Positions 5,836 through 60,983 of a DNA stretch of 64,000 nucleotides are shown piece after piece. The notes under the pieces were generated by a model that was not told the DNA's origin, did no database searches, and saw only the letters and a list, made by a program, of their open reading frames with translations. The stretch comes from an uncultured Methanolinea sp. (lineage in GTDB: Archaea > Halobacteriota > Methanomicrobia > Methanomicrobiales > Methanospirillaceae). Position 1 is the stretch's first letter. Every line of letters starts with the position of its first letter. The position numbers and the translations under genes are program-made. The DNA is taken from contig CAYVMJ010000001.1 in assembly GCA_964452625.1 (NCBI GenBank), forward strand, positions 489,914 to 553,913, in the 5' to 3' direction.

Positions 5836-6408
5836 CTAGTCCTCAATTTTTCCTTCATATAGACTGTATTCTCGTTTAAAATATGTTGAAAGATTCATTA
5901 AGAGGTTTAGATATTCATTCGATAAATGATGTCTACAAATTGTATCATTTTGATTAATGATCCAACAAACTCCATTTTCCGTAACTATACCCAATGTAAA
6001 TATCGTTTCCCAATCAGTATCCTTATAGCGTCTGGCTGGTTGATATTTTGCCAGAGGGATCCTAATCCTTTCAAATGAGATTTTAGTATCAAATATTTCT
6101 TTTTTAACATTATCGTCTTTAATAATTCCCTGTTTCTTGATTTGTTCATCTATAGAGCGGACAATTTCATAAACCCCTAATACCCAGAGATAAGATAGTG
6201 TATGAAATTCTGACAATTCATAAATAAATTCGCGATCTGTAGAAAAATTTTCCATCATTTCTAGAATAGATAATATTCTATAACGTAATTGATGCTCTAT
6301 TAAACCCAATCCCAAAGATGTATTTTGCATCATGGGATTAAATTCAACTAATGTATGAGAGTGATCAATCCATAATTGAACAAATTCTTCAATTTCATCA
6401 CATTTCAT
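5836..6408 (-). CDS. Hypothetical protein (190 aa), AT-rich cargo gene
   Basis: Clean ORF lying between the nuclease and the STAND gene. No motif was recognised. Confidence 0.45.
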   Translation of the reverse strand: MKCDEIEEFVQLWIDHSHTLVEFNPMMQNTSLGLGLIEHQLRYRILSILEMMENFSTDREFIYELSEFHTLSYLWVLGVYEIVRSIDEQIKKQGIIKDDNVKKEIFDTKISFERIRIPLAKYQPARRYKDTDWETIFTLGIVTENGVCWIINQNDTICRHHLSNEYLNLLMNLSTYFKREYSLYEGKIED

Positions 6409-6437
6409 ATGTTCAACTCATATTTTCTAATTAAATT

Positions 6438-11672: not shown

Positions 11673-11819
11673 TGAAACCTACTCTTGTTCCGAAAATAAA
11701 AATAGTATCGCTTTTATTAAAACATAGGAAATGATGAAGGAAACTACAAAATTTAGTCCCTCTATAACCTGTTCTGAACCACTTATCTGATTTTAGGAAA
11801 ATAAAAAAAACGAAGAGTT

Positions 11820-12968: not shown

Positions 12969-13044
12969 TGGTCATACCTCCACAGGACCCAGATTTAATC
13001 CAAACCTGTGTCCGGTGAATGTTAGATCCTTAAGATCCGGTCAC

Positions 13045-43667: not shown

Positions 43668-43952
43668 ATGGGCAGGATATCAATGCGATCCACCGTCTGT
43701 GCAAAAAAGAACCAGGTCTCCTGCGATCTTGCCGGGGAAGCGGTGATTCTCTCTCTTGATCAGGGGATGTATTACACGATGAACCCCGTCGGAGCGAGGA
43801 TTTGGAGCATGCTGCAGACATCCATGCCGGTACAGGAGATCCGGGATGTACTCGTGTCGGAATTCGAGATCGGAGCAGAGATATGTGAAGCGGATCTGCT
43901 GGCTGTCCTGGAAGACCTCGCGCGGGAAGGGCTGATAGAGGTTGAAAATTAG
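43668..43952 (+). CDS. Lasso-peptide B1 protein (PqqD-like RiPP recognition element)
   Basis: Sequence pattern and size (94 aa) fit PqqD. It overlaps the start of B2. Confidence 0.7.
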   Translation: MGRISMRSTVCAKKNQVSCDLAGEAVILSLDQGMYYTMNPVGARIWSMLQTSMPVQEIRDVLVSEFEIGAEICEADLLAVLEDLAREGLIEVEN

Positions 43953-44385
43953 CTCGTTTCATCGGTTTTTTCACTATGCCCGGGCAGGGCGTATTGTCCT
44001 CATCAGGGCATTTGCAATATCAGGACTGATCCGGCTGGGACTCTGGATTTTCCCGTTCAACACAGTACTCAAACTCGTTTCTTACATCAATCCCAAACCA
44101 CGCCGGGAGTTGGATCCTTCAATACCAGTCCCGCTGGTTATATGGGCCGTGAAGATTGTGAATTTTCATATCCCGCGGTCCACGTGCCTCGTGCAGGCGC
44201 TTGCATCGCAGGCAATGCTTGCTCTGAAAGGGGTTCCTTCCTGTCTCTGCATAGGGGTTTCCAGGGGGCAGGAGTCGTTCATCGATGCCCATGCCTGGCT
44301 CGAGGTCGATGGAAAGGCGGTCATAGGCGAACCGGAACCTGGCAGGTTTACAAGGCTCACCGGGATTGGCACGAGTCCGGAATGA
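43942..44385 (+). CDS. Lasso-peptide B2 leader peptidase (transglutaminase-like cysteine protease)
   Basis: Catalytic triad context C (RSTCLVQA), H (DAHAWLEVDG) and D. Size is 147 aa. Confidence 0.7.
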   Translation: MKISSFHRFFHYARAGRIVLIRAFAISGLIRLGLWIFPFNTVLKLVSYINPKPRRELDPSIPVPLVIWAVKIVNFHIPRSTCLVQALASQAMLALKGVPSCLCIGVSRGQESFIDAHAWLEVDGKAVIGEPEPGRFTRLTGIGTSPE

Positions 44386-44585
44386 ATCAGGGCCGGATTC
44401 TCGTCCAGAGGTGTAAATACTCATAAGGGCACATCATCCCCTGGACTCAGGGGAACAGAACCGGTGGAAAAGGAAGCGTAAGGATTCGAAGAAAAAACCG
44501 TGGAGAGTGCGGGAGAAATAAAGCGTATCGTTCTTATATCGAGTTATTCAATTGAAATCTGCAATTATTGCTGAAATGAAGTGCT

Positions 44586-46493
44586 ATGAGTGGAATAGGG
44601 GGTATACTGAACCTGGACGGATCAGAGGTTTCTTCCGGGTTGCTCGAACACATTGCCGGTTCAATTAAGAGCCGCGGTCCCGACGGTGTCAGGATATGGA
44701 AAGCGAAGAATATCGGGATGGTGCACAGCCATTTCTGGACGACTCCCGAGGATACGGGAGAAGAACAGCCCATCTCGATGGGTCATTACACCCTTGCGGC
44801 CGACGCAAGAATTGATAACCGGCAGGAACTCCTCCCCCTTTTAAAGGATTATATCAGCCGTGAAGTTCCCAGCGATGCCGAGATCATCCTTGCTGCATAT
44901 CAGAAATGGAATGAAGAGTGTCCGAAATACCTTATCGGAGATTTTGCATTCGCGATATGGGATGCAGAACGGGAATGCCTTTTTCTTGCCCGAGATCCGG
45001 TCGGAATACGACTCCTTCATTATTCGGTGGCAGGGAAGTCATTCGTCTTTGGTTCGGGCGTGGGATCCGTTGTCGCGACCATGAATACAGTCCCTGAGCC
45101 GAACATTCCTATGGTCGCAGACCTTCTGGCAGGCAGATACGATCGCTGGATCGATGAGACTGCCTTCAAGGACGTGCACCGGCTCCCTCCTGCATATTCC
45201 ATGACGGTTCTTGCATCGGGCATTCGCCTGACAAGGTACTGGACATTTGGGGCGCGGAAGGAGTCTCCTCTGGCAACAGAGGAGGAATATGTCGCCCGGT
45301 TCGGGGAATTATTCCGGGAAGCCGTCCGATGCCGGATGAGAGTGAATGACTCTCTTGCAATGACAGTGAGCGGCGGCATCGATTCATCTTCCATCGCCTG
45401 CATGGCACATCATCTCATCTCGTCCGGGGATGTCCGTACAACGGGAAGAATGTACTCTGCGGTATTCGAAGATACCCCCTCTGCCGACGAGAAGGAGTAT
45501 CTTGATGAATTGATTGCTGCCTGCCCTTGCTTCCCGGCCACCGAGATTCCATCCGATACCTTCTGGGGCCTTTGCGAATTTGCAGATGACGCCGGATATC
45601 CCCTTGACGATCCCGAGATCGAGGCGACCCGTGCAGTGATGCTGGCGCAGCTTTTCCACATCGCGCAGGATGGTCATAGGGTCGTTCTAAGCGGCCATGG
45701 TGGTGACCAGGTGATGTATACTGATGCATATGATATTCCTCCCAGCCTGAATGATATTGGCCTCACCAGGCTGCCCTCAGAATTCCGTCATTTCCTGCGG
45801 AATGGAATCCCCGTCACGAAGTTGCTGGAAGAAGCATACGTAATCCCCCTGATCCCGGTTGTCCTCAGGAAACGTCTCTCAAGACTTCTGAGAGATCCCA
45901 CGATAGGAGGCCTGTTGGCTCCCGGGTGTATCAGCATTCCGTCACCGGACCCCGCTGACGTACATCCGGGGTTTCGAACCGCAACCTCCACGAACATTTA
46001 CCTTGCTGTGACCGAAGGACTCAATTCCGTCTACCGGGTCACGCAGGACACGTATGCCTCGTATGCAGGTATCGACTGGCGATTTCCTTTCTATGATCGC
46101 CGCCTGATCGACTTTTTGCTCTCCGTTCCTCCTCTCTATATGTTCCGGGATGGATTCTCACGATGCCTCATCCGCGGGTACATGAAGGGACTTTTACCCG
46201 AAAAGATACGGCACCGGACAACGAAATGTCACCTTGGGGATATCCAGGAGCGTGGAATACAAGAGAAGGAGATATGCAGGGTCCAGGAATTGATCAACGA
46301 TTCCCGGGCTGTGGAGATGGGATTGGTCAACCCGGATGCACTCAAAAAAGCATGGGATTCCTGCTGGAACGGAGAGGAGTACCCTGCCCGTCCCCTCGTC
46401 AGGTTCCTCTGTGCCGAGGCGTGGCTCCGGTATTACGACAGGAAGTACGGGTTACCCCATAGAGCGGAAGCCGGGATGCCCGGAACGGACTGA
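44586..46493 (+). CDS. Lasso-peptide cyclase C (asparagine-synthetase homolog)
   Basis: N-terminal MSGIGGI (AsnB-type) and PP-loop SGGIDSS. Length is 635 aa. Confidence 0.75.
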   Translation: MSGIGGILNLDGSEVSSGLLEHIAGSIKSRGPDGVRIWKAKNIGMVHSHFWTTPEDTGEEQPISMGHYTLAADARIDNRQELLPLLKDYISREVPSDAEIILAAYQKWNEECPKYLIGDFAFAIWDAERECLFLARDPVGIRLLHYSVAGKSFVFGSGVGSVVATMNTVPEPNIPMVADLLAGRYDRWIDETAFKDVHRLPPAYSMTVLASGIRLTRYWTFGARKESPLATEEEYVARFGELFREAVRCRMRVNDSLAMTVSGGIDSSSIACMAHHLISSGDVRTTGRMYSAVFEDTPSADEKEYLDELIAACPCFPATEIPSDTFWGLCEFADDAGYPLDDPEIEATRAVMLAQLFHIAQDGHRVVLSGHGGDQVMYTDAYDIPPSLNDIGLTRLPSEFRHFLRNGIPVTKLLEEAYVIPLIPVVLRKRLSRLLRDPTIGGLLAPGCISIPSPDPADVHPGFRTATSTNIYLAVTEGLNSVYRVTQDTYASYAGIDWRFPFYDRRLIDFLLSVPPLYMFRDGFSRCLIRGYMKGLLPEKIRHRTTKCHLGDIQERGIQEKEICRVQELINDSRAVEMGLVNPDALKKAWDSCWNGEEYPARPLVRFLCAEAWLRYYDRKYGLPHRAEAGMPGTD

Positions 46494-46552
46494 GAATGGC
46501 GGATCTTTGTGAAATTGAAGGACAATATCTACGATCATTTCCAAAATAAAAA

Positions 46553-46601
46553 ACAAATCTCTTTATACAAAGAAAGTGAGGCTTGTACAGCCCTCGATAG
46601 G
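46553..46601 (+). promoter_or_regulatory. Conserved upstream element (TATA-like TTTATACAAA) of lasso precursor A1
   Basis: About 80% identical to 47056-47105, at the same distance (about 80 nt) from the ATG. Confidence 0.5.
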
Positions 46602-46633
46602 GGGCAGTAAAGTACTATACCAGGATCGATACA

Positions 46634-46765
46634 ATGAAGAAAGAATTGTATACAGCTCCAAAGCTTGAAAAAGTCGGAAATGTGAAGGATTTGACACGCG
46701 GCGGCACCGGTGTTTATCAGGATAATGGAGGAGCCGGTAGTTATTCACCTGTAAGACTCGACTGA
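46634..46765 (+). CDS. Lasso-peptide precursor A1 (43 aa)
   Basis: Hand-translated as MKKELYTAPKLEKVGNVKDLTR/GGTGVYQDNGGAGSYSPVRLD. Thr is at -2 of the leader, the core starts with Gly and Asp is at core position 8. An oligo-T terminator follows. Confidence 0.65.
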   Translation: MKKELYTAPKLEKVGNVKDLTRGGTGVYQDNGGAGSYSPVRLD

Positions 46766-47055
46766 TGGGCATTATCGGGTTCAGCGGTTTTCATTTATCT
46801 TTTTTTTCAAGAGCCTATTACTCATGAGACTGCAATATCCGGGATTCCTTTTCCATCGGGTGACCATACGCGTACATTTATGTCAGTGCATACCCAGGAT
46901 TCGAATAACCTGTTGATATTCTGCCCTTTTCAGGACCTTTCTCTGCCGTTTTAGGCGATGTTTTTTTTCTTGTAATACATCTGGAGAATTTACTCACATC
47001 AAAATATGACTGTAATGTCAAATGATTTTGAGATACTACATCAATGAAAATGAAT

Positions 47056-47105
47056 ACAAATCTCTTTATACAAAGATATTGAGGCTTGTACAACCCTTGA
47101 TATGG
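47056..47105 (+). promoter_or_regulatory. Conserved upstream element of lasso precursor A2
   Basis: Paralogous to 46553-46601. Confidence 0.5.
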
Positions 47106-47138
47106 GAATCATGTATTTATCCGGCAGGGATAGATGCC

Positions 47139-47264
47139 ATGAAGAAAGCAGTCTATGAACCTCCAAAACTCGAAAAAGTAGGAAACATGAAGGATTTGAT
47201 ACGTGGAAGTCTGGGAGATCTGCAGGATGCCGGGGGTGCCGATAGTTACAACCCCGAACCGTAA
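47139..47264 (+). CDS. Lasso-peptide precursor A2 (41 aa), with Ile instead of Thr at leader position -2
   Basis: Translated as MKKAVYEPPKLEKVGNMKDLIR/GSLGDLQDAGGADSYNPEP. The leader is paralogous to A1 and is preceded by the same conserved upstream element. Confidence 0.6.
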   Translation: MKKAVYEPPKLEKVGNMKDLIRGSLGDLQDAGGADSYNPEP

Positions 47265-47340
47265 CCGGAGGCAGTGTAGGCACAGGAGCGTTCTTTTCAG
47301 TTACAAACAAGATTTTTTTCATCAGGAAGGAAGGGTTTCT

Positions 47341-48513
47341 GTGAATACCAACGAAGCAGGCTTTCGGATTCTCCCTGTGGATGCATCAGGTGTTGAGAGA
47401 TTCCACCATGCAGTCCCTTCCTCACATGACCCTGCTGTCATTGGTCTTGCACATGGTATTGCCTCAAGTCCGATCTGGTCTTTGATGCCGGGGGCTACCC
47501 TTTTTGTCAGACCGACGCCTCCACTTATCGCAGTGGTTGGACACTTCGATGATGCGTCGGAGGCACGCCTGGAGGCGCTCTCATTCCAGGCACAATTTGC
47601 CTTGCGGACTCTCCGGTACGTGGATTTTTCCCGGGCAGAGGAAGACTGCAGGATCCTCGCATCCCTCCTGAAAGAGCGATTCGGGGAAGAAAAATTGAAA
47701 CAATGCTATTTTTCCGCGATGCCGAGAGGCGGATACCTCATCCTGGGATTGCTGGCATATATCCTTGGTGTGCATCCGTCCCGGCTGGACTCTCCCGCAC
47801 CCCGGGATGCAACCCTTATCGTTCTCGATGATTGCGCCATCTCCGGCGCCCGCTTCCAGGACTTCCTGATGAGATCGGAGAACGAGAGGATCATCTTCGC
47901 ACCATTATACTCGCATCCGGAGTTACGGGAATCTATCGAAACGCGGGAACACCGCGTTGTTGCCTGCATCAGCGCCCATGACCTGGCAGATTATTCCGGC
48001 GAAACCAGGGGAGGAAAAGACGCGTACAGGGAGCTCTGGAGAACCCGGCATCCTGACAATCGGTACTGGATTGGCCTCCCTGAATACATCTGTTTTGCCT
48101 GGAACGAGCCCGACAGGCCGTTCTGGAACCATGTATCCGGAAAGACCGAATGCGGCTGGACACTCATCCCCCATGAATGCTGCCTCAAGAACGGTCCACC
48201 CCGCATCCCGGTATATGTCCAACCGGAGGCGAAGGGTCTAATCAGGCCTTCGGATCACGTGATATACCTGATGGACGGAGACTCGGTTGTAATCGGCGAT
48301 CTCGATTCGAACGCGAGTTACCATCTTGGTGGGGTCGGTGCAGGTATCTGGAATGAGATCATCGAATCCGGAGACCGGGAGGCTGCTATGAAAAAGATAC
48401 GGGAAAAATACGGGGCGGATGACAAAACTGTCCGGGAGAATGTTACAGCATTTCTTGAGGACCTGATCGGAAGAGGGATCCTTGAAGAGACCTGCATGGA
48501 TTCATCAGTATAG
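47341..48513 (+). CDS. Phosphoribosyltransferase-like nucleotide-binding domain fused to a C-terminal PqqD-like (RRE) domain
   Basis: PRTase-type motif ATLIVLDDCAISGARF. The C-terminal about 90 aa (HVIYLMDGDSVVIGDLDSNASYHLGGVGAGIWNEI...) are PqqD-like. A GTG start with an upstream AGGAAGG is proposed because the ATG-started ORF overlaps precursor A2. Confidence 0.5.
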   Translation: MNTNEAGFRILPVDASGVERFHHAVPSSHDPAVIGLAHGIASSPIWSLMPGATLFVRPTPPLIAVVGHFDDASEARLEALSFQAQFALRTLRYVDFSRAEEDCRILASLLKERFGEEKLKQCYFSAMPRGGYLILGLLAYILGVHPSRLDSPAPRDATLIVLDDCAISGARFQDFLMRSENERIIFAPLYSHPELRESIETREHRVVACISAHDLADYSGETRGGKDAYRELWRTRHPDNRYWIGLPEYICFAWNEPDRPFWNHVSGKTECGWTLIPHECCLKNGPPRIPVYVQPEAKGLIRPSDHVIYLMDGDSVVIGDLDSNASYHLGGVGAGIWNEIIESGDREAAMKKIREKYGADDKTVRENVTAFLEDLIGRGILEETCMDSSV

Positions 48514-48529
48514 AAAACCGGATCGTGAA

Positions 48530-49498
48530 ATGAGACTTCACCGGCTTTACGGACTGACCGTTGCAAGCGATTTTCCTTTCAAAAACAGGTTTCCCGGAGG
48601 GTCGGGAAGCCCCGATGTTACTTTTACGTGCAGGAAGAGGCCTCCAGTTCCGGATCATTGGCAGAATACAACGCCATTATTTGCGTCCGGAATGAAATCA
48701 GAACGTGGGGAGAGCATCCTCTCCATCTTCAGGACCGATGGATATCATGTTGCACATTATCCCGGGTTGGTTGATTTTTATATCTGGCCTGATCGAATCA
48801 CTGCACACCTGTGTGACACCTCGCATGACTATCTGGTTGAAATTTACCTCATTGGAGATATCTTCTCCCTCTGGCTTGAACTCCATGGAATTCCCGCAAT
48901 CCATGCATCATCAGTGGTGATCGATGGTCAGGCGATCGGCTTCCTCTCATCCAATAAAGGTGGGAAAAGCGCACTTGCCGCAGCGTTATTGAAGAAAGGA
49001 TATCCCCTCCTTACCGATGATATCCTCCCGATTGAGAAAAGGGATGGCATATATTTTGGCCGGCCCGGGTATCCCCAGATGCGGATGTGGCCGGATGAAG
49101 CCGGTTTTTTTCTTGGAGGCTATGAGGATCTCGATATTGTTCATCCCAGGTATTCCAAACGCAGAATACCGGTAGGGGGGAAGGGATTCGGATCATTTTA
49201 TAGCGATTCAATTCCGATTGGAGCACTCTATATCCCGGAACGGCAGGATCATTGCGAGAATATTGGAATTAAACCGATATCACAAAAAGACGCATTCATC
49301 GAGATGATTCGCCATTCATTCTCGGTCAGCATCGTCGAAGCCCTCGAGCTCCAGGTTCCCCGGATGCAGTTCTTTTCAGGTCTGGTTCAGAACGTTCCCG
49401 TACGACGGTTCATGTACCCTTCAGGATTTTCTCACCTCTCTGATGTTGCGGATACCCTGGTCGATGATATCAGGTCAATAGAACCAAAAATGCAATAA
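48530..49498 (+). CDS. HPr-kinase/phosphorylase C-domain-like P-loop protein (candidate RiPP/lasso-peptide kinase)
   Basis: GFLSSNKGGKSALAAALLKKGYPLLTDD matches the HprK P-loop/DD region. Confidence 0.6.
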   Translation: MRLHRLYGLTVASDFPFKNRFPGGSGSPDVTFTCRKRPPVPDHWQNTTPLFASGMKSERGESILSIFRTDGYHVAHYPGLVDFYIWPDRITAHLCDTSHDYLVEIYLIGDIFSLWLELHGIPAIHASSVVIDGQAIGFLSSNKGGKSALAAALLKKGYPLLTDDILPIEKRDGIYFGRPGYPQMRMWPDEAGFFLGGYEDLDIVHPRYSKRRIPVGGKGFGSFYSDSIPIGALYIPERQDHCENIGIKPISQKDAFIEMIRHSFSVSIVEALELQVPRMQFFSGLVQNVPVRRFMYPSGFSHLSDVADTLVDDIRSIEPKMQ

Positions 49499-49608: not shown

Positions 49609-51447
49609 ATGACAGAAGTACCGCCTCCACCAGCAGGAATACGTGATCTCGGCCAGAGGATACATACCCTGTTTGGTATCCGGCGGGCTGTCGCCATGGT
49701 CTGGGCAAGTGCACCGGGCTGGACCATTGCAGGCGGAATCCTGATCGTCCTCCAGGGGATCCTTCCGCTGGCCACACTCTACCTGTTGAAGCTCATCATT
49801 GATGCAGTCACAACAGGTACTACAACGGGTCACGTGGAGGGATCATTTGGGACCATACTCCCCTTGCTTGTCGTTTTTTGCGTCCTCCTCCTGATTACAA
49901 TTTTTACCCGATCACTCTCGGGTTATGTGAGCGAAGCCCAGTCTCGGTATACTACAGATCATGCACAGGAGATCATCCATGCCAAGTCCATAGAGGTCGA
50001 CCTTGAATATTACGAGAATCCTTCCTATTATGACGCGTTTTACCGGGCCCAGGCAGAAGCACCGGCAAGGCCTACCAGAATCGTTAATGGACTGGTCCAG
50101 GTTGGCCAGAGCACGATTACCCTGTGCGCAACGCTCATCATACTCATATCTTTCAGCTGGACTCTTGCAGCCCTGCTGCTCGTTGCCATAGTGCCGGTTG
50201 CTTATATCCGCTGGAAATACGCGGATATCGAATACCAGTGGAGGAAAAGCAGGACTTCGAAGGAGAGGGAGTCGTTTTATTTTCACTGGCTTCTCACCGG
50301 AGAGGGCCATGCAAAAGAGATCCGGCTCTTCAACCTGGGAGAGAGATTCGCACAACGCTATCGGCAACTCCGGGCTCAAGTGAGGCAGGAACACCTGTCG
50401 ATATCGAGGAAAAAGGTGATTGCGGATATTGCCGCACAATCGGTAGCAGTCCTCGCGCTTTTTGTTTCGTTTCTTTTTATCGCGTACAAAACCATCGAGG
50501 GAAGTATTTCCCTCGGCGACCTCGTTTTGTATTTTGGCCTTATCCAGCAGAGCCAGTCGTATATGAACACGCTGCTTTCAGGCCTCGCAGGCCTCTACGA
50601 AGATACGATATTCCTGACAAACATATATGAGTTCCTTGATCTCCACCCGAAGGTGAAAGAACCCGAGCATCCGCTTCAGATCCCTGTTCCTGTGACGAGA
50701 GGCATCTCGTTCGAACATGTCGATTTCCGGTATCCCGGATCGGAATCCCTCACACTTACAGATATCAACATCACGATACCAGCGGGCAAGACTGTCGCCC
50801 TTGTTGGAGAGAATGGTTCCGGGAAGACCACCCTGATAAAACTCCTCTGCAGGCTCTATGACCCTGAATCAGGGAGGATCACCCTTGATGGCACCGATAT
50901 CCGCATGTTCAGGACTCTCGACCTGCGAAAAGAGATCAGCATCATTTTCCAGGACTATGCCAGGTATAACCTGACAGCACGGGAAAATATCGCAATCGGG
51001 AGCAGGGAACAATTGGTGGATGATGAGGATGTAACAAGAGCGGCGGAGGCATCCGGAGCAGACTCCGTGATCAATCAACTGGACCAGAGTTACGAGACAA
51101 TTCTTGGGAAAATGTTCGAGAAAGGGGCGGAACTCTCGATCGGGGAATGGCAAAAAATTGCACTGGCAAGGGCATTCATCCGGGATGCACAACTCATTGT
51201 CATGGATGAACCGACGAGTTCCCTCGACCCTCTTGCCGAGGCCGAGGTCCTTAAACAGTTAAAGAAGATCTCCGAAGGTCGCACTACAGTCATCATCAGC
51301 CACAGGCTCTCGTCGGTCAAGGCAGCGGATATTATTTATTATCTGGATGGAGGGAGAGTAGTTGAAATGGGGACTCATGATGAACTTATTAATGTAAAAG
51401 GATCTTATGCACATTTGTATGAGACCCAGGCCCGGCAATACAAATAA
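49609..51447 (+). CDS. ABC exporter, fused permease plus ATPase (McjD-like RiPP exporter)
   Basis: Six N-terminal TM helices. Walker A is GENGSGKTT, the signature is LSIGEWQ and Walker B is LIVMDEPTS. Confidence 0.8.
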   Translation: MTEVPPPPAGIRDLGQRIHTLFGIRRAVAMVWASAPGWTIAGGILIVLQGILPLATLYLLKLIIDAVTTGTTTGHVEGSFGTILPLLVVFCVLLLITIFTRSLSGYVSEAQSRYTTDHAQEIIHAKSIEVDLEYYENPSYYDAFYRAQAEAPARPTRIVNGLVQVGQSTITLCATLIILISFSWTLAALLLVAIVPVAYIRWKYADIEYQWRKSRTSKERESFYFHWLLTGEGHAKEIRLFNLGERFAQRYRQLRAQVRQEHLSISRKKVIADIAAQSVAVLALFVSFLFIAYKTIEGSISLGDLVLYFGLIQQSQSYMNTLLSGLAGLYEDTIFLTNIYEFLDLHPKVKEPEHPLQIPVPVTRGISFEHVDFRYPGSESLTLTDINITIPAGKTVALVGENGSGKTTLIKLLCRLYDPESGRITLDGTDIRMFRTLDLRKEISIIFQDYARYNLTARENIAIGSREQLVDDEDVTRAAEASGADSVINQLDQSYETILGKMFEKGAELSIGEWQKIALARAFIRDAQLIVMDEPTSSLDPLAEAEVLKQLKKISEGRTTVIISHRLSSVKAADIIYYLDGGRVVEMGTHDELINVKGSYAHLYETQARQYK

Positions 51448-51507
51448 AATGACTGAACTTATTTGAATAAAAAATAAGTGATTTGGCAGGTTTTTTTTAT
51501 TTTGCAA

Positions 51508-51570
51508 GGAGAATCAGAATTGATTTTCACTATATAAAAGACAGGTACGCAAAGGATGAAAAAGAACATT
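51508..51570 (+). repeat. Conserved 63-nt element upstream of Cys-rich precursor 1, containing the mini-ORF MKKNIVSI at 51556-51582
   Basis: About 90% identical to 52083-52145 (GGAGAATCAGAATTGATTTTSACTATA..AAAGACAG.TACGCAAAGGATGAAAAARAACATT). Confidence 0.5.
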
Positions 51571-51712
51571 GTTTCAATCTAAAAAATTTTTAAAAAATAA
51601 ACCATTTTTTTAATCAATCAGTAAACTTTTCGTTTTTCCAATAAATTCTATAACTCCAATTTGAAAAGAAAAACAGGTAGGTATAAATACTCGGATAGAA
51701 ATCAACTAACAT

Positions 51713-51928
51713 ATGGTTCTGAGGGTATATGAAAAACCGGAATTGATAGACCTTAACGAACAACCAGGATATGGTTCCTGCGAAAATGGGAGTGGAGATC
51801 CCGGGTGTAATAACGGCAATGCGGCGGGGGAGGTCTGCCTAGCAGGAACAGGGGGAGCAAGAGTTACATACTGTGTGGGTGGATTGGGTGATGCCACTGG
51901 TTGTATCGCGGGAGAAGGTGGCGATTAA
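51713..51928 (+). CDS. Cys/Gly-rich RiPP precursor-like peptide 1 (71 aa)
   Basis: Translated as MVLRVYEKPELIDLNEQPGYGSCENGSGDPGCNNGNAAG followed by EVCLAGTGGARVTYCVGGLGDATGCIAGEGGD. The first 39 aa are identical to the paralog at 52303. Confidence 0.6.
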   Translation: MVLRVYEKPELIDLNEQPGYGSCENGSGDPGCNNGNAAGEVCLAGTGGARVTYCVGGLGDATGCIAGEGGD

Positions 51929-52082
51929 TAATTATGTTCATTTTTCATCCTCTTTAGAAAACCTCAATGAAATAAAATCGTAGGTGTCCTTGGATAATAC
52001 AGACAACCATTTTCGATAATTTCCATCTTCCGGATGAGAAAGACTCTTAATATAAAATCGCAGGCCGTACTTTCATTTCAGT

Positions 52083-52145
52083 GGAGAATCAGAATTGATT
52101 TTGACTATACCAAAGACAGTTACGCAAAGGATGAAAAAAAACATT
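52083..52145 (+). repeat. Second copy of the conserved 63-nt element, with the mini-ORF MKKNIFQ at 52131-52154
   Basis: See 51508-51570. Confidence 0.5.
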
Positions 52146-52302
52146 TTCCAGTAAGTATTGTCTAATTAAAGTCTGGAATACCATTTTTGCTGATCATGCA
52201 GAGGGTTACTATTCTCTATAGTTATTCAACTGATTCAAATACTCCCTGTTGATGGAAAAATATAGGAAATCTTAAATACCACGATCGAGGTCAATGATAG
52301 TT

Positions 52303-52527
52303 ATGGTTCTGAGGGTATATGAAAAACCGGAATTGATAGACCTTAACGAACAACCGGGATATGGTTCCTGTGAAAATGGAAGTGGGGATCCCGGGTGTAA
52401 TAACGGGAATGCAGCTGGGACGGTTTGCTTCGATGGGGCGGGTGGCATTCCTACAGGGACCAACTGTCTCGCAGGAGGTGCGGCAAATTATCACTGCGAT
52501 TCAGGCTCTTCCGGGTATGATTTTTAG
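52303..52527 (+). CDS. Cys/Gly-rich RiPP precursor-like peptide 2 (74 aa)
   Basis: Same 39-aa leader as peptide 1, then a divergent core TVCFDGAGGIPTGTNCLAGGAANYHCDSGSSGYDF. The leader-coding DNA is about 95% identical between the two genes. Confidence 0.6.
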   Translation: MVLRVYEKPELIDLNEQPGYGSCENGSGDPGCNNGNAAGTVCFDGAGGIPTGTNCLAGGAANYHCDSGSSGYDF

Positions 52528-52718
52528 AGATAACATTTTTTATGTTAAGACACATTCATTATGTCTCTCTAATTGAATGAATATCTCACATTAAAGCCAA
52601 TGAGTCATCAATTCTATCATCATTGAAGTCCATTTTTTATCTATGCATTAAAATATGGCTGTATCATTTAATCAATGAAAATGAATTTTCTGTACTATTG
52701 AATATCTCCAGTCCTCTT

Positions 52719-53834
52719 TCAGCAGCGCCCTGCAATCCTCCGCGACTCCGGGAAGAGACCCGATTGGAAAGCTGATCGGCAAAACCAGTAATCCGAGAAG
52801 AGATCTCCGGACGTATAATAGTTCTGGGCGATACAGGACCCAAGGCAGCGCCACTTCATCACACACTCCTGGCAGATCCCCTGCATCTCCCGCGGCAATT
52901 TTTCCCGTATCTCTTTCAGTACTGGAGTTTCTTTCCAGATTTTTTCAAGGGGATCCACCCTGGCATCCCCGAATACCATCGACGGAGTCGATTCCCCTAT
53001 CCCGCAGAGGGCATACTTACCACTGGAAAGAACACCAAGGATGTTGAAGATCCCACATACACCGCAGTCTACTCCGGCATTCCGGAAGAGCGAACTCATT
53101 GGACGGAACGCCATCGGGAGGCTCGTGAAGATGCGAATTTTGGCATTCTTCTGGAAGTCTTTCTCCATCCAGTTCCCCAGATCGATGAGTTCCGGGACCG
53201 AGAGTGTCTCGTTCCGTGTATGCATCACTTTTCCGCGTTCGGTGGGCTGAACGAAATTGAACTTGATGGATTTTGCTCCAAGGTCTTTTGCGAGTGCTGC
53301 AACATCGGGGATATCGTCTTTATTGGCCCGCATCACCGTCATGATAATCTGAAGGGGGATCTTTGCTTCTGACACCAGTCTCGCTCCTTCACAGGCTTTT
53401 TCGAAAGACCCCTGTACACCCCTTATGTGCTCGTGGTTTTCAGCCAGCCCGTCAATGGAGACTGATACAAAGGGAGCAACGCATTCGCTCACGATTTTTG
53501 CGATATCAGGAGTAATGCATAACCCGTTGGTCTCAATTTTCAATCCGATATGCTGGTCGCGTATAAACTGAAGAATCCCGGTGATTTCGGGGTGAATAAG
53601 TGGTTCTCCCCCCGTCAGTTTCACAGAAGACAGCCCTAAATGTTTTGCCTGATCGATAATATGATGAAACAGGGGAATATCGAGTGCTCTGGTGCTGACC
53701 CCCTGTTTCTGGTATGTCGGGGAAATCCAGCAGTGACGGCAGGCAAGATTACAATCACCGCACAGATAGAAATACAGGGTATTAAGCTGAGGGATTGCCT
53801 TTATTTTCTGCTCTGATGGCTCCGGGTTCATCAT
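52719..53834 (-). CDS. Radical SAM/SPASM-domain peptide-modifying enzyme (ScmE/ScmF-like)
   Basis: CGDCNLACRHC radical-SAM cluster motif. The C-terminal SPASM Cys cluster is CGVCG...CQECVMKWRCLGSC. Confidence 0.75.
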   Translation of the reverse strand: MMNPEPSEQKIKAIPQLNTLYFYLCGDCNLACRHCWISPTYQKQGVSTRALDIPLFHHIIDQAKHLGLSSVKLTGGEPLIHPEITGILQFIRDQHIGLKIETNGLCITPDIAKIVSECVAPFVSVSIDGLAENHEHIRGVQGSFEKACEGARLVSEAKIPLQIIMTVMRANKDDIPDVAALAKDLGAKSIKFNFVQPTERGKVMHTRNETLSVPELIDLGNWMEKDFQKNAKIRIFTSLPMAFRPMSSLFRNAGVDCGVCGIFNILGVLSSGKYALCGIGESTPSMVFGDARVDPLEKIWKETPVLKEIREKLPREMQGICQECVMKWRCLGSCIAQNYYTSGDLFSDYWFCRSAFQSGLFPESRRIAGRC

Positions 53835-54967
53835 TTCGAGCGCTCCAGGCTATCAGACCCGTTTTTATACAAATAGATTATCTCGCCTCCTGATTCGAGA
53901 TATCTCCTCAGGCAGTTTTCAGGGTTTGGTGCGAATACCGTTCCGGTCAGGTTATACCCGACACCCGGGCAATTCCCTGTACAATAGGTTTGGTACAGGC
54001 AGTCCCTGCAATAGGGGAAATCCGATAAGGGTATCTCCCTTCGGTTTCGCAGACGCTCCAGCTCGGGGTGATGCTGCCATACTTCTTTTAGAGAATCGTC
54101 ATTGATATGTCCGAGCATGATATGAGCGAGGTGGCTGCAGGGGACGATCACTCCATCCGCCCTTACGGTGATTTTACTCCACAGGCACCCGCATCCGACA
54201 AGATAGCCGGCCCATCCCGGCTCATTATTTTTCCGTGCCTTTTCCATCTTCGCATACATTTTTGCATCCGCAAAAGGACCGGCAGCAGCGGTGATACGCC
54301 CCGGATATTTTTGATCTAACTGAAGAAGACTTCTCATTGCATGGACTTTCTCATCAATAGTCAGCTGCACTTCATCCGAATGCTTCATGGAGAGTCCCAT
54401 GAACGAGACATAGTTCGTACTGAATCCCGGGATCCCTATCTCTTCAAGGAGGAAGCGGGCGATTTCTTCGAGTGTGTCATAATTTTCCTTGTGAACGGTA
54501 ACACGGACCGTCACAGGGACTCCTTCCTCCTGGAGGATTCTTAATCCGGCGACCGCTTTTTCAAAAACACCTTCACCCCTGAAAGAATCGTGGACGGCAG
54601 GAGTTGCACCGTCGATGGACACCTGCACATAATTACAACGGCGGGTTGCAGCAATCATCCTGGCAAGGTCCCGTGTTATTCTTGTTCCATTTGTCAGAAT
54701 GGAAAATCTCATCCTGTTCCGGACTATCCCATCGATCAGTTCCAGAATATCATCACGAAGAAGGGCTTCACCCCCGGTAAGGGTGGCATTCATCACTCCC
54801 AAATCACCCAATTCCTTGAAGAATGTAAGCCATTCAGAAGTCGGTAAATCCCTGGTGACATCGCCCGGGCTGGTGAAGTGGGAGCAATAGCGGCAGCGGA
54901 GATTACAGGCATTGGTGATCTCGATATCGATCTCCCGGGGAGTCTTCATAAGGGCCAGGGGTTTCAT
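53831..54967 (-). CDS. Radical SAM/SPASM-domain peptide-modifying enzyme (second paralog)
   Basis: CNLRCRYC motif. C-terminal SPASM Cys cluster (CGCLW...CSHL...CRDC...CTGNC). It overlaps the downstream rSAM gene by 4 nt. Confidence 0.75.
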   Translation of the reverse strand: MKPLALMKTPREIDIEITNACNLRCRYCSHFTSPGDVTRDLPTSEWLTFFKELGDLGVMNATLTGGEALLRDDILELIDGIVRNRMRFSILTNGTRITRDLARMIAATRRCNYVQVSIDGATPAVHDSFRGEGVFEKAVAGLRILQEEGVPVTVRVTVHKENYDTLEEIARFLLEEIGIPGFSTNYVSFMGLSMKHSDEVQLTIDEKVHAMRSLLQLDQKYPGRITAAAGPFADAKMYAKMEKARKNNEPGWAGYLVGCGCLWSKITVRADGVIVPCSHLAHIMLGHINDDSLKEVWQHHPELERLRNRREIPLSDFPYCRDCLYQTYCTGNCPGVGYNLTGTVFAPNPENCLRRYLESGGEIIYLYKNGSDSLERSK

Positions 54968-54974
54968 CTGTCAC

Positions 54975-55250
54975 CTATCCTTCTTTAAATGAAATGAAGT
55001 TATTTTGTATCAGCCGATCGAGAAAATCGCTGATATCCTTGATGATCTCAGTGTAATCCTTATCAAAAGTGTGAGCAATATACAGAGAAATTTTTTCAAG
55101 GGAGCTAGTCCCGTCCATGTGTTTCCATACCATCACACCTGTAGGATTGATACCGAATACTCTTCCTGTATCCGGGTCGAATAAGAGGGCCCAGTCATCG
55201 AATTCCTCCCTGATAACAATATTGGGATTTTTTAATGGAATTTTTTCCAT
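54975..55250 (-). CDS. PqqD-family protein (RRE) of the rSAM cassette
   Basis: WALLFDPDTGRVFGINPTGVMVWKHMDG is PqqD-like. Start is placed at the internal MEKIPLK. The ORF extends to 55343. Confidence 0.65.
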   Translation of the reverse strand: MEKIPLKNPNIVIREEFDDWALLFDPDTGRVFGINPTGVMVWKHMDGTSSLEKISLYIAHTFDKDYTEIIKDISDFLDRLIQNNFISFKEG

Positions 55251-55379
55251 GGAAGAAGAACCTGTCATTACTAATGAATGCGATGAAGAATACATAAAAA
55301 TTATGAATAATAAGGAATTATTTCCCTTTGATATTTTCATCATAAGATATCAATACACGACAATCCAGGGTATGCTCGT

Positions 55380-56036
55380 ATGTATGAAGGGAGTATTGTA
55401 ATCCGCTATACCGGTTGGAGCATGTATCCTACATTTTTCCCCCATGACCTGTTGACCTGCAGGGCCACTTCGGTTCATTCCCTTCACCGTGGTGATATTG
55501 TTGTGGTCAGATCGAAGAAATCAATTCCCGAACACATGACTGTCCACCGGGTTTGTGAAATTAAAGAGGGAAAGATCATTACCAGAGGAGACAATACCGA
55601 TCGACCCGATGAAGATCCTGTCACACCTGATAATTTTGTGGGAGTCGTGGTAAGGGCAAAAAGAAGAGAAAAGGAGTTCCCTGTGCGTTCAGGCGGCACA
55701 GGATACGCCAGGCATTATCTCCTGATTCTGAAAAAGGCATTATTCAAGTCAACGGGACCTGTAATATTGCAATTGGAAAAATTGGGGGATGTACGGCAAC
55801 CCATGAAGCACCTGATCCCACGCATTGTCCCGGGAAAAATCATTGGTATCCGGACGCCGGGAGGAATCGATCTCCAACTCTTTTTCCATAATATTCTCAT
55901 AGGATGGTTGTTGTTCAATGGTCCATCCTGGTATATACGGCCAATATTTCGGCCTTTTGTGGATTCACACTCTCTGCCGGAGAGTTATCGATCAGTCTTT
56001 CCTGGTTTCAATCCGGATGGAGGGGAATTCATCTGA
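55380..56036 (+). CDS. S26/S24-type signal-peptidase-like serine protease (candidate leader peptidase)
   Basis: GWSMYPT matches the SGSMxPT nucleophile motif of type I signal peptidases, and GDIVVV follows. Confidence 0.55.
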   Translation: MYEGSIVIRYTGWSMYPTFFPHDLLTCRATSVHSLHRGDIVVVRSKKSIPEHMTVHRVCEIKEGKIITRGDNTDRPDEDPVTPDNFVGVVVRAKRREKEFPVRSGGTGYARHYLLILKKALFKSTGPVILQLEKLGDVRQPMKHLIPRIVPGKIIGIRTPGGIDLQLFFHNILIGWLLFNGPSWYIRPIFRPFVDSHSLPESYRSVFPGFNPDGGEFI

Positions 56037-56073
56037 AGAGTTCTGTTTCAGTATCGATTCCCTCCCCGGAAGC

Positions 56074-57253
56074 ATTGCGGAAGTACTGCAAAAATTATTT
56101 TCCTTCCGAAAAAAATGGTTTCCAGATACTGGATGCACCTGATGCATTTCTCTCGTGGTTGCTGGGAATATTACATCGAGTCCCTGTACCTGCACCATCA
56201 CTCACCGATGAAGAATGGAATCAGGTCATGAACTTGCTGGGACCTCATGGCATAATACCCTACCTCTCGTACCTGCTGAGCGCGATGCCTCCTTTCTGCC
56301 ATCCGCCCAGCCATATCAGGAGGGTGTTTGCCGTCCAGTATCTCAAGAGCAGTTTTCATTCGGATCAGGCCATGAAACAGGCTGAGAATGTCTGTATGGC
56401 CTGTGAGAAGAACGGAATACATGTGCTGGTCCTGAAGAGTCCCGCGATTGGCCATGCATACTACCCCGAACCGGGTCTTCGAACGGGGAGCGACATCGAT
56501 ATCCTCGTGGCTCCGGAACAGTATGAACAATGCAGGGGGGTATTGTGCAATCTTGGCTATGATCTCAGATATGATACCTATCGGATCATGCCCCGGTTCT
56601 ATCATCACGCATGCTATTATCCCCGGAAAAAAAACCAGCAGGTGATCGAACTGCACTGGAGGCCTTTGTTCCTTCCGGGACCTGGTGACAGTGTCGACCC
56701 CGTTGAACTGATTGCCAGGTCGGAAAGAATCCAGACCCCCCATGGACATATTCAAAGACTCGACCCTGCAGATGCGCTCCTGTACTTGTCAATCCACATG
56801 AGCCTTTTTCATGAGCCCGTGCTCAGAATCTCGTGGGTATGCGATATTGAACGCATCTGTGAGTATATTACATCCCATGCTCTCTGGCCAAGGGTGAAAG
56901 AGCGGAGTGAAATATGGCAGGGAAGAAGTGCGGTTGAGAGGGCATTAGGTATTGCACAGCAATGGACAGGGTTGACGCTCCCGGATGAGTATGATCTCTC
57001 CTCATGGCCAGGGGCTGGGGCTGATGATGAGTATGCACGCACCCACATGCAGGAAAGACGTGCCGGGAAGGAGCTTCTCCTTCACCAGATTATTGCCCGG
57101 ATGCCCACCTTTTCCTTAAAGGTACGGGCCATGTATCACTGGGCCTTCAGGCCTGACCTGATACACGATGGTTTTCCCTCGATGAAATGGTGGGAATATC
57201 CTATAAGATATGCCCAGATGTTTCACAATAATTATCAACAAATCCGTCGATAA
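56074..57253 (+). CDS. Nucleotidyltransferase-family protein (NTP_transf_5-like). Start is uncertain.
   Basis: GIHVLVLKSPAIGHAYYPEPGLRTGSDIDILV matches the uncharacterised nucleotidyltransferase family often found in RiPP clusters. The frame is open from 55904 and overlaps the peptidase. A TTG at about 56074 or the ATG at 56225 are candidate starts. Confidence 0.5.
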
Positions 57254-57280: not shown

Positions 57281-58252
57281 TTGGATGTTTCACCGCTCAA
57301 AGATATGCCACCCAAATTTCTGTTACACTCAAATGCGCAGTCTGCTGGAAAAATGGTAATGACCGAAAAGACACCGATTTCATCTGTTTACTCATTATCT
57401 CTTTCAAATGGGCATTCCTGGGATATACATGCAGATATAAATCTCGAAAAGTGGCTGTTGAATTTTGCGACAATCCTTGGCCTGTCACAAACACTACCCA
57501 GAGATGGTGTGAGTGATTTTTACATTACACTTGAGGAAAGTGTCGAAGAAAATCTTTCAATTGGAACCTGGCAGGAACTTCCAAACAGGTATGTCAGGAT
57601 ATTCCTCTCCAATAAGAACCGGGACATCGTCTGTATCCCGAACAGGGAGTTCCTCACATCACGTCTCGATGAAACTGTATTAATGCTGTTTGTGATGCAG
57701 GCAATATACGCATCAGAGATATCAAGCGGGGGTCTTCCGCTTCATGCAGCGATGGTGCACTGGAATGAATGCGGGATACTCCTTGCAGGACAGGGAGGTA
57801 TTGGGAAATCAACCTGTGCCATGAGGCTTCCCCTCCCCTGGCAGGCAATATCTGATGACACGTGCCTCGCGGTTTATTCGGGCGAAAATACCTTTTCCAT
57901 GCATCCTATGCCCACCTGGAGTGTCTTTTTTGATTATCAGGACTGGGAAGCATCCTGGAAGGTGGAAAAATCATTCCCGATACAATTGATTTGTTTTCTT
58001 GAACGCGGTGCCTCAGATGAGATTATCGCCCTCGGGAGCGGGGAAGCAGCGGCATGCCTGTATCAATCTGCACTACAGGTCTGGCGGGGAACACACTCTA
58101 CACCCAGCGCCCCGGACCTGCATCAGCAATGGGTGAAAAGAATATTTCAAAACTCATGTTCACTCTCTCACATGATACCCTCAGCAAGACTCAAATTCAC
58201 AAAAGAGGGGCGTTTCTGGGAGAAAATTGAAACTTTTCTGGGTATAACCTAG
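57281..58252 (+). CDS. Second HPr-kinase C-domain-like P-loop protein
   Basis: GILLAGQGGIGKSTCAMRLPLPWQAISDD matches the HprK P-loop/DD region. Confidence 0.6.
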   Translation: MDVSPLKDMPPKFLLHSNAQSAGKMVMTEKTPISSVYSLSLSNGHSWDIHADINLEKWLLNFATILGLSQTLPRDGVSDFYITLEESVEENLSIGTWQELPNRYVRIFLSNKNRDIVCIPNREFLTSRLDETVLMLFVMQAIYASEISSGGLPLHAAMVHWNECGILLAGQGGIGKSTCAMRLPLPWQAISDDTCLAVYSGENTFSMHPMPTWSVFFDYQDWEASWKVEKSFPIQLICFLERGASDEIIALGSGEAAACLYQSALQVWRGTHSTPSAPDLHQQWVKRIFQNSCSLSHMIPSARLKFTKEGRFWEKIETFLGIT

Positions 58253-59804: not shown

Positions 59805-60983
59805 CTACCTGGCCGGGATCCCGTTCTCCTCTGCTATCTCTCTGAAGGCCGAGGCCACGTATTCGGCCTGTTCACGGGTCATCCCGTAGGAATTGAACTT
59901 CCAGACCTTCGTTGCCCCGGGGATTATCCCGGCAATTCCGCGTGCTTTCAGCGCGCTTGAAAGGAAGTATCCGCGCTTCTTGTGAGTTTTTGCCACTTCA
60001 TCGAAGGACTGGCTCGTGTCCACACGGGTGAGCGTGTGCTTCCTCGGGTATTCGCTCCGGATCTCGGTGCCCCCGATTCCCTTCAGCGCATCGGTGATCA
60101 TCCTGCCATTCGCCAGTTCCTGGTCCCAGTGCTTTACCCGCTCCCTTACATGCGGGAATGATGCCATCATCCCGACGAGTGTCACGCCCATCAGGGTGCA
60201 CCCCATCATCTCCACTTCCTTGATCCCGAATGACCGGGAGGTCACATCGGTTTTTGCCGAAGTGGTGCGGAAGACGTCGGCCGCCCGCTCGGCCGTTGCC
60301 GCGAGCACGCCGGACGGTGCAGGAGCGGCCATGCTCTTGTGCCCTGATCCCACGATGAAGTCAGCCCCGATATCTTTTCCGTCGACTCCCATGATGCCCA
60401 CTGTATAGGCGCCGTTTACGAGGACTGGGATATCATACTGGTGGGCTGTCCGTGTAATCTCCTTCACAGGGTGCACGTTTCCATACTGGTAATCCACGTG
60501 ATCAACGAAGAGGAGGGCAGGAGTCTTCCCCGTCTCCCGCATGACTGCTTCGATCTTTTCTGCTGCTGCGTCCGGTGTGATGAGGTTTCCGGGAGTCTTT
60601 GGTATCTCCCGCAGAAGCCCTCCCCTGCTCTCGACAGCGAGCACTTCGGTATAGTGAGAGAGTGCAGTGATAAGGACCGGATCTCCCTTCTGCACGTAGG
60701 TATCCGCAACGGCCTGGAACCCCCGTCGGGCACCGGGGACCACCCGGGCAACGTCCATCTGGAGGAACGCGGCGAGATCGCGGATGAATGCATCAACAGG
60801 CGGGATTTTTATATAGTCCAGCCTGAAAGGCTTACGGCAGTTGTCACAGATCGAGTATCCGTCCCCATACGAAATGACTGCCTTCATCGCTTCCGCAGTC
60901 AGGCGCCCTCCCACCTGGATCGGGTCGATGTTGATACACGCTTCATCCACATCACGCACATCGATCGGGCCTGCACACTTCAT
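59805..60983 (-). CDS. pscS: O-phosphoseryl-tRNA:Cys-tRNA synthase (SepCysS)
   Basis: PLP-lysine region GSGHKSMAAPAPSG is characteristic of SepCysS. Length is 392 aa. Confidence 0.85.
   Translation of the reverse strand: MKCAGPIDVRDVDEACINIDPIQVGGRLTAEAMKAVISYGDGYSICDNCRKPFRLDYIKIPPVDAFIRDLAAFLQMDVARVVPGARRGFQAVADTYVQKGDPVLITALSHYTEVLAVESRGGLLREIPKTPGNLITPDAAAEKIEAVMRETGKTPALLFVDHVDYQYGNVHPVKEITRTAHQYDIPVLVNGAYTVGIMGVDGKDIGADFIVGSGHKSMAAPAPSGVLAATAERAADVFRTTSAKTDVTSRSFGIKEVEMMGCTLMGVTLVGMMASFPHVRERVKHWDQELANGRMITDALKGIGGTEIRSEYPRKHTLTRVDTSQSFDEVAKTHKKRGYFLSSALKARGIAGIIPGATKVWKFNSYGMTREQAEYVASAFREIAEENGIPAR

Follow-up and report, generated by a model that had tools for sequence, protein, structure and literature searches.

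The SynChlorMet (SCM) cassette is represented in NCBIfam by ScmA (TIGR04252), ScmC (TIGR04249), ScmD (TIGR04248), ScmE (TIGR04250) and ScmF (TIGR04251), and it has in common with the systems of sactipeptides and ranthipeptides (SkfB, AlbA, CteB, PapB), both peptides that are ribosomally synthesized and modified post-translationally (RiPPs), a Cys-rich precursor, radical S-adenosylmethionine (SAM) enzymes with a full SPASM domain and a PqqD-type RiPP recognition element (RRE). The repeated Cys motif of SCM recalls the repeated CX3D units of freyrasin/PapB. It differs from the sacti- and ranthipeptide systems in that the RRE is a separate protein, that two radical SAM enzymes are always paired, that the repeat has no conserved acceptor side chain, that ScmC, an NTP_transf_5-family protein and an S26-like protease are found in addition, and that a thioether would here be a predicted feature. 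With the lasso peptides paeninodin and pseudomycoidin, SCM shares a pair of kinase and nucleotidyltransferase, a PqqD-type RRE and a leader of the Y-x-x-P-x-L type, but SCM has neither a lasso cyclase nor a B2 protease, and the lasso kinases target a C-terminal Ser. An HPr-kinase-like protein together with a nucleotidyltransferase forms the tailoring pair of phosphorylated and glycosylated lasso peptides (PMC8498205). Here we analysed a stretch of 64,000 nucleotides from an uncultured Methanolinea sp. (contig CAYVMJ010000001.1, positions 489,914 to 553,913; hereafter the window, with positions counted from its first letter), in which two small open reading frames (ORFs), pepA and pepB, lie next to genes for two radical SAM/SPASM enzymes and a PqqD homolog. 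The enzymes of the window are the same as those of SCM, and the peptides carry the same leader motif and Cys pattern; in comparison to the canonical cassette, the window shows a rearranged gene order, a tandemly duplicated precursor gene and an archaeal host that encodes SepCysS. We consider it likely that the two ORFs are tandemly duplicated, divergent ScmA-family precursors of an SCM cassette.

The pepA gene (51713..51928, + strand) encodes a peptide of 71 residues, in which the leader MVLRVYEKPELIDLNEQPGYG is followed by five Cys units about 10 residues apart, and pepB (52303..52527, + strand) encodes 74 residues, or 77 if an alternative ATG at 52294 is used, with the same 39 N-terminal residues as pepA and a different sequence in the last three Cys units. 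The original prediction, which was made from the sequence alone, had regarded the whole identical stretch of 39 residues as a leader and the diverged C-terminal parts, each with three Cys, as the cores. The identity of residues 1-39 was confirmed and the variable part does contain three Cys; however, the shared 39 residues turned out to consist of about 21 leader residues and of the two Cys units C-E-N-G-S-G-D-P-G and C-N-N-G-N-A-A-G-E/T-V, so that each peptide has five units and five Cys, two in the shared part and three in the variable part. Both ORFs show the general features of RiPP precursors: they are short, combine a conserved leader with a variable core, and cluster with the genes of modifying enzymes and of an RRE protein.

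As predicted originally, the two peptide genes are convergent with the genes of both radical SAM/SPASM enzymes and of the PqqD homolog, and coordinates and strands agree with this arrangement. ScmF (52719..53834, − strand) matches TIGR04251 with 491.9 bits (cut-off 400) over profile positions 3-352 of 353, ScmE (53831..54967, − strand) matches TIGR04250 with 541.6 bits (cut-off 400) over positions 1-357 of 358, and ScmC (57281..58252, + strand), a P-loop protein of the HprK/PEPCK fold, matches TIGR04249 with 202.6 bits (cut-off 125). All three exceed the curated NCBIfam equivalog cut-offs, which bears out the earlier assignment to the SynChlorMet cassette. The PqqD-family gene, scmD (54975..55343, − strand), which encodes the presumed leader-binding RRE subunit and probably starts at the Met at 55250, has TIGR04248 as its best match and sits at the expected place beside scmE.

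To compare the locus with its relatives, 57 other loci were retrieved from 185,579 species genomes via an alignment of ScmC homologues. The hosts comprise Desulfobacterota/Syntrophia-type bacteria, Chlorobiaceae, Omnitrophota, WOR-3, Aminicenantes, Clostridia and several Methanomicrobiales, and mapping by tblastn revealed a conserved order of scmD, scmE, scmF, a gap, scmC, the protease gene, the NTP_transf_5 gene and an ATP-binding cassette (ABC) transporter gene. A profile built from three peptides of the window type detects small ORFs in the gaps between scmF and scmC, and the wider collection comprises more than 50 of them. The search for similar small ORFs in homologous cassettes, which had been proposed with the original prediction, was thus successful, as every one of the 32 loci with ScmC, ScmE and ScmF contained an ORF consisting of leader and Cys repeat; the loci without such an ORF are mostly those in which scmC lies at a contig end. 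A peptide ORF is located on the same strand within 700 nt upstream of 47 of the 63 scmC copies for which upstream sequence was available, and in 51 out of 71 cases the next gene downstream of a peptide ORF is scmC. When peptides were defined by a regular expression, 44 of 47 were found within 700 nt of an Scm gene, and such sequence makes up 37% of the bases examined. Conversely, a hidden Markov model (HMM) made from the short foreign ORFs alone recovered pepB (E = 2.1e-10) and pepA (E = 9.8e-9) among the 954 window ORFs of at least 20 residues, and the next ORF followed at E = 0.15.

A word-indexed protein search with pepA returned only three near-identical peptides, and the family became visible only by exhaustive profile search. 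When 1.84 billion representative proteins were searched with a profile of three close variants, 45 small ones proved to share the leader and the Cys pattern. One of these (P0033) is encoded with a radical SAM gene on one side and, on the other, scmC plus genes for a Peptidase_S26 and an NTP_transf_5 protein, and another (P0036) between a PqqD gene and a gene for a ScmC homologue. A further candidate (P0029) was set aside because its neighbour on a contig of 1.2 kb is not ScmF, which leaves this contig uninformative. A profile search with an alignment of 51 peptides gave only matches named 'hypothetical protein' or without a name, and no source calls them ScmA.

According to the original prediction, no precursor had been assigned to the SynChlorMet cassette. 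This did not hold, since NCBIfam contains TIGR04252, with the short name SCM_precur_ScmA, a length of 49 positions and a cut-off set at 35 bits. The model is matched by 23 of the 42 relatives from the profile search and by 13 of 50 cassette-adjacent peptides, and four matches that were aligned in full cover essentially all 49 positions. The best of the listed matches reaches 28.1 bits (E = 1.8e-6, which is also the best E-value in the set of 50 peptides), i.e. it remains below the cut-off, as do all ten relatives with listed scores (20-28 bits). Judged from these sequences, the curated ScmA model looks too narrow and appears to miss most of the real precursors.

The alignment of 92 family members gave the consensus x(0-12)-[KR]-Y-E-K-P-x-L-[IV]-x-L-x(5-9)-G-x-G-x-C, after which the repeat units begin; its Pro and its first Cys are invariant, as is the Gly at position +3 of this Cys, and the next two Cys are nearly so. 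Throughout the family the YEKPxL leader ends at G-x-G, about 13-16 residues past the Pro, and the core consists of 3-7 units of a repeat of about 10 residues, C-x-x-G-[SGNT]-x-A-x3. In the 75 short members, which have 3-7 Cys per peptide, the distance from Cys to Cys is 10 in 118 of the 256 intervals and 9-11 in 201 of them; Gly occupies position +3 in 83% of the units, position +4 is S, G, N or T, and Ala is the commonest residue at +6 (37%). The first two units, which in the window belong to the shared part, represent the best conserved part of the core across the family, and the Ser of the G-S-G unit is nearly invariant. A second, longer form of 105-140 residues with 9-17 Cys occurs in Syntrophia-type loci. 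In eight loci (L006, L017, L018, L023, L026, L029, L030, L036), scmC is present in 2-4 copies alongside several peptide genes, one of which typically lies directly upstream of an scmC copy, and the peptides are often of the long form.

The two window peptides are clearly maintained as coding sequences. Over the 117 nt that encode the shared part, pepA and pepB are 94.0% identical, and all seven differences are synonymous. The earlier statement of about 95% identical DNA is therefore adequate for this part, but not for the whole direct repeat of 144 nt, which is 88% identical according to the repeat search. For codons 1-39 the Nei-Gojobori method gives a synonymous divergence (dS) of 0.35 and a non-synonymous divergence (dN) of 0 between pepA and pepB. 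On a metagenome contig (L001) we found a third, single-copy variant between the same ABC gene and scmF, with the same residue at 38 of the 39 N-terminal positions and again a different C-terminal part; with this variant included, the three pairings give a dS of 0.18-0.35 and a dN of at most 0.011. Downstream of codon 39, dN rises to about 0.6 and dS to at least 0.63 or to saturation, and the reading frame and the positions of Cys and Gly are nevertheless preserved through the strongly diverged 3' halves of all three variants. Since the boundary between the constant and the variable part is sharp at synonymous sites as well, selection alone would be an insufficient explanation, and the pattern points to recombination or gene conversion by which a constant 5' module was joined to different 3' modules. 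The 220 nt upstream of pepB are 94% identical to the region upstream of the single-copy gene in L001, from which we conclude that pepB is the positional orthologue of the latter.

A natural deletion in a close relative, represented by three contigs (L059-L061) whose ScmC is 81% identical to that of the window, further links the peptides to the radical SAM enzymes. These contigs and the window are collinear over the stretch that begins with the lasso cluster described below and ends with the ABC gene (83.5% DNA identity), and collinearity resumes at position 55804. What is absent is the segment in between (window 51390-55804, corresponding to 8027-8444 of L059), with both scmA genes, scmF, scmE, scmD and two-thirds of the protease gene from its 5' end. 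A 3' remnant of the protease gene is retained along with the NTP_transf_5 gene, scmC, the ABC gene and the whole lasso cluster; because of this remnant, the difference represents a deletion in the relative and not an insertion in the lineage of the window. The peptides were thus lost jointly with the radical SAM and PqqD genes, while the lasso cluster, the NTP_transf_5 gene and scmC stayed. The remaining scmC and nucleotidyltransferase genes of these contigs are either decaying or now serve the lasso peptides. From the comparative evidence together with the co-deletion we conclude that pepA and pepB are very probably the precursors of the cassette, which agrees with the substrate role foreseen for them in the original prediction.

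Several observations weigh against this assignment. pepA and pepB themselves do not match TIGR04252 even at E-values up to 10, so their link to this model is transitive through the relatives, and formal equivalog membership fails for two of the five components, ScmA and ScmD. ScmD scores 81.0 bits, i.e. below its cut-off of 100, although its next match, PqqD, follows only at 29 bits; the lasso-PqqD model is matched as well. The order of genes in the window deviates from the canonical scmD-E-F-A-C, with the peptide genes convergent with scmF and about 5 kb away from scmC. The ABC exporter, whose gene has the lasso cluster on one side and the scmA genes on the other, could belong to the former. 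A Ser is not consistently found at the C-termini of the peptides, and the analogy with the lasso kinases is thus not directly transferable. With regard to the comparison, the regular expression for the foreign peptides was modelled on the window peptides, which means that the HMM test is not fully blind, and the set of loci was chosen through a single ScmC motif. Finally, a search of 8 million full texts brought up no paper on the SynChlorMet system, and a paper that maps radical SAM enzymes does not mention it (PMC9062424). The ScmA family is thus catalogued in silico and is apparently uncharacterised experimentally. In searches of the two window peptides against Pfam and NCBIfam, no family was matched.

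The original prediction had described the cassette as two radical SAM enzymes and a PqqD protein together with a conserved hypothetical protein. The radical SAM and PqqD genes stand, but the cassette is larger, since conservation extends to a protease, an NTP_transf_5 protein and an ABC exporter. Directly next to scmD, a signal-peptidase-I-like (S26/S24) protease and candidate leader peptidase is encoded at 55380..56036 (+ strand; TIGR02228, E = 4e-13; Peptidase_S24/Peptidase_S26). In an alignment of 30 sequences (cassette homologues plus the window's own protein), at least 85% share the motifs G-x-S-M-x-P, H-R-V and G-D, which are the Ser/His/Asp motifs of signal peptidases of the endoplasmic reticulum/archaeal type. 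The NTP_transf_5-family nucleotidyltransferase gene (55904..57253, + strand; PF14907, 146 bits) overlaps the protease gene as listed, so that its true start probably lies downstream of 56036; the orthologue in L059 is called at 309 residues. This gene is kept in most cassettes, and a protease gene is found beside scmC in most loci. For ScmC, the AlphaFold model (pLDDT 86) displays a two-domain P-loop protein of the PEPCK/HprK type, with PEPCK as top Foldseek matches (E about 1e-7, TM-scores of 0.42-0.47); this modest similarity concerns the general PEPCK/HprK fold only, and the Foldseek search gave no specific functional match. The HprK models are matched weakly (E 5e-5 to 1e-3), homologues of ScmC carry the Pfam domain PF27840 (ScmC), and the GxGKST loop, a His and an Asp-Asp pair are invariant among 21 homologues. 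The ABC exporter, a fused permease and ATPase, is encoded at 49609..51447 (+ strand) and shows matches of the MsbA/bacteriocin-exporter type; ABC genes with 42-50% identity adjoin eight other SCM cassettes (L022, L028, L033, L039, L041, L050, L052, L054).

While the leader and repeat anatomy was established by comparison, we infer the steps of leader binding, radical SAM modification, tailoring by ScmC and the NTP_transf_5 protein, proteolysis and export. ScmD, as a PqqD-type RRE and the sole RRE-type protein of the cassette, would bind the Y-E-K-P-x-L leader, a motif which we take to resemble the Y-x-x-P-x-L of lasso leaders; indeed, both ScmE and ScmF begin directly at the CX3CX2C motif and have no N-terminal extension that could hold an RRE. 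The Cys units would then be modified by ScmE and ScmF, with intramolecular thioethers from Cys sulfur to carbon as the most likely outcome. Both enzymes possess the features expected of sactipeptide or ranthipeptide maturases, i.e. a CX3CX2C motif and a complete SPASM Cys motif, with CNLACRHC and the complete SPASM Cys set in the translation of ScmF and CNLRCRYC and CX2CX5CX3C in that of ScmE. As only Cys and Gly(+3) are conserved in each unit, a C-alpha (sactionine-type) link or Gly as acceptor would fit better than a specific side chain. ScmC and the NTP_transf_5 protein may add phosphate and a further group; the target residue cannot be a C-terminal Ser as in the lasso peptides, and a candidate is the Ser of the G-S-G unit, which is nearly invariant. 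The Ser/His signal-peptidase-like protease is predicted to cut the leader off behind the conserved G-x-G, whose small residues before the first Cys would suit its −3/−1 preference, and the ABC transporter would export the product. The variable cores on a constant N-terminal part, the exporter and the presence or absence of the system in close relatives suggest a secreted, bacteriocin- or signal-like accessory product rather than a cofactor. Tentatively, the cassette might represent a new RiPP class, in which two SPASM enzymes install one cross-link per C-x-x-G decapeptide with side-chain-independent acceptors, possibly the C-alpha of Gly, before the peptide is phosphorylated and decorated by the proteins of the HprK/PEPCK fold and of the NTP_transf_5 family.

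The chemistry is the part of this proposal for which an alternative deserves serious attention. The same precursors could possibly undergo another radical SAM reaction, such as the formation of C-C or C-O cross-links, epimerisation or a conversion of Cys, or they could yield a metal-binding or redox product, and we regard this as a real, if uncertain, option. ScmE and ScmF score about equally against AhbD, NirJ, WgkB, MftC, PqqE, StsB and PapB, whose chemistries differ widely and extend from C-C formers to tetrapyrrole enzymes. The nearest solved structures are SkfB, PqqE and CteB for ScmF and SkfB, PqqE and SuiB for ScmE; all are enzymes that cross-link peptides, and they include the C-C formers PqqE and SuiB. 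In addition, the constant presence of two distinct radical SAM enzymes suggests two reactions. On the other hand, Cys is the sole side chain that is invariant in every unit and, to our knowledge, Cys-rich precursors associated with SPASM enzymes have so far all been sacti- or ranthipeptides. The hypervariable cores and the dedicated exporter and protease argue against a product of the cofactor type.

It is considerably less probable that ScmC is the primary partner of the peptides, in the sense of a kinase-substrate, adenylation or immunity pair, and that the radical SAM enzymes act elsewhere. In favour of this, peptide genes usually neighbour scmC and multiply along with it (L006, L017, L029, L036), and orphan scmC genes without radical SAM genes exist in L007 and L059. 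In the window, however, scmC is located about 5 kb from the peptide genes and scmF only 190 nt away; furthermore, L059 lost the peptides together with the radical SAM genes while scmC stayed, and a peptide is present in every locus with ScmE and ScmF.

A complete lasso-peptide cluster with its own HprK-like gene is located directly upstream (window 43942-49498). It comprises the genes for a lasso B2 protease (43942-44385; NF033537, 86 bits), a lasso cyclase (44586-46493; NF033535, 399 bits, below the cut-off of 525), a first precursor (46634-46765; …DLTR/GGTGVYQD…), a second, paralogous precursor with Ile at −2 (47142-47264; …DLIR/GSLGDLQD…), an unusual fusion of phosphoribosyltransferase (PRTase) and PqqD (47203-48513) and the HprK-like protein (48482-49498). 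It is very improbable that this cluster, and not the radical SAM enzymes, uses the two small ORFs as precursors or as tailoring substrates. The Y-E-K-P-E-L of the two ORFs does resemble the Y-x-x-P-K-L of the two lasso precursors, one cassette peptide matches the lasso leader model weakly (E = 0.025), and HprK-like and nucleotidyltransferase genes are known as lasso tailoring genes (PMC8498205). Yet homologues of the lasso B2 protease, cyclase or precursor are missing from all 57 other SCM loci, although the peptides are found there, and L059-L061 have kept the lasso cluster but lost scmA together with scmD, scmE and scmF. We therefore rejected pepA and pepB as candidates for lasso precursors.

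That the ORFs are chance frames in a duplicated non-coding segment, although the duplication also takes in a non-coding element and the exact pepA protein is on record solely from metagenome assemblies in ENA (that of pepB from NCBI and ENA), can practically be dismissed in view of seven synonymous and no non-synonymous changes in 39 codons, of the frame and Cys/Gly positions kept in three variants and of homologues in bacteria and archaea. It may be that pepA has simply not been called in the NCBI genome annotation.

The non-coding element is 63 nt long and conserved, and one copy is found about 200 nt upstream of each peptide gene, at 51508..51570 for pepA and at 52083..52145 for pepB (no strand assigned). 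The two copies form a direct repeat with 92% identity and contain the inverted repeat GAGAATCA-GAAT-TGATTTTC, given here for the copy upstream of pepA. The 20 nt at the 5' end of the element occur in the window at just these two sites, with 0.01 expected, and the element is also present in L001 at about 1016-1078. A comparison with Rfam gave no match, and the folding of the element as RNA was not significant (z-scores from −0.8 to +0.7). Since all five substitutions between the copies are non-synonymous in an overlapping small ORF, the element is probably non-coding, and it may be a binding site for a regulator.

A second type of small peptide (for example KEYSKPGITRVKLDAKCAVLGFCKTSGSIGPG…CSGPGS) was observed in L003 (11640-11804), L014 (1777-1941), L033 (3321-3524), L052 (5001-5183) and L053 (813-986), where it adjoins an extra PqqD gene and a gene for a distant ScmE-like radical SAM enzyme (22-28% identity). 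This looks like a separate radical SAM RiPP module that is co-located with SCM. Elsewhere in the window, the SepCysS gene is located at 59805-60983. An AT-rich island at 6000-13000, with a GC content of 33-34% compared to about 55% elsewhere, harbours an ORF of 1744 residues with weak matches to STAND-NTPase and P-loop proteins (6438-11672, − strand) and a phage-type integrase gene (11820-12968, − strand), and was probably acquired horizontally. An ORF of 994 residues (1035-4019, − strand) without a match in Pfam lies in a stretch of 70% GC, far above the average of the window.

Taken as a whole, the SCM cassette is an orphan among RiPP systems, and nothing that is known is overturned by the present analysis. 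The comparison adds the repeat grammar C-x-x-G-x-x-A-x3 and a fuller list of parts, i.e. the protease, the NTP_transf_5 protein, the exporter and the co-multiplying scmA and scmC genes, and it reveals that real precursors are entered as 'hypothetical protein' or without any name, and that some may be uncalled. If the SCM system does form a new RiPP class, the window would provide an archaeal pair of natural core variants on a constant N-terminal part, which would be ready-made substrates. For ScmE and ScmF, the locus provides concrete substrates from an archaeon that are well supported and make the chemistry of the two enzymes directly testable.

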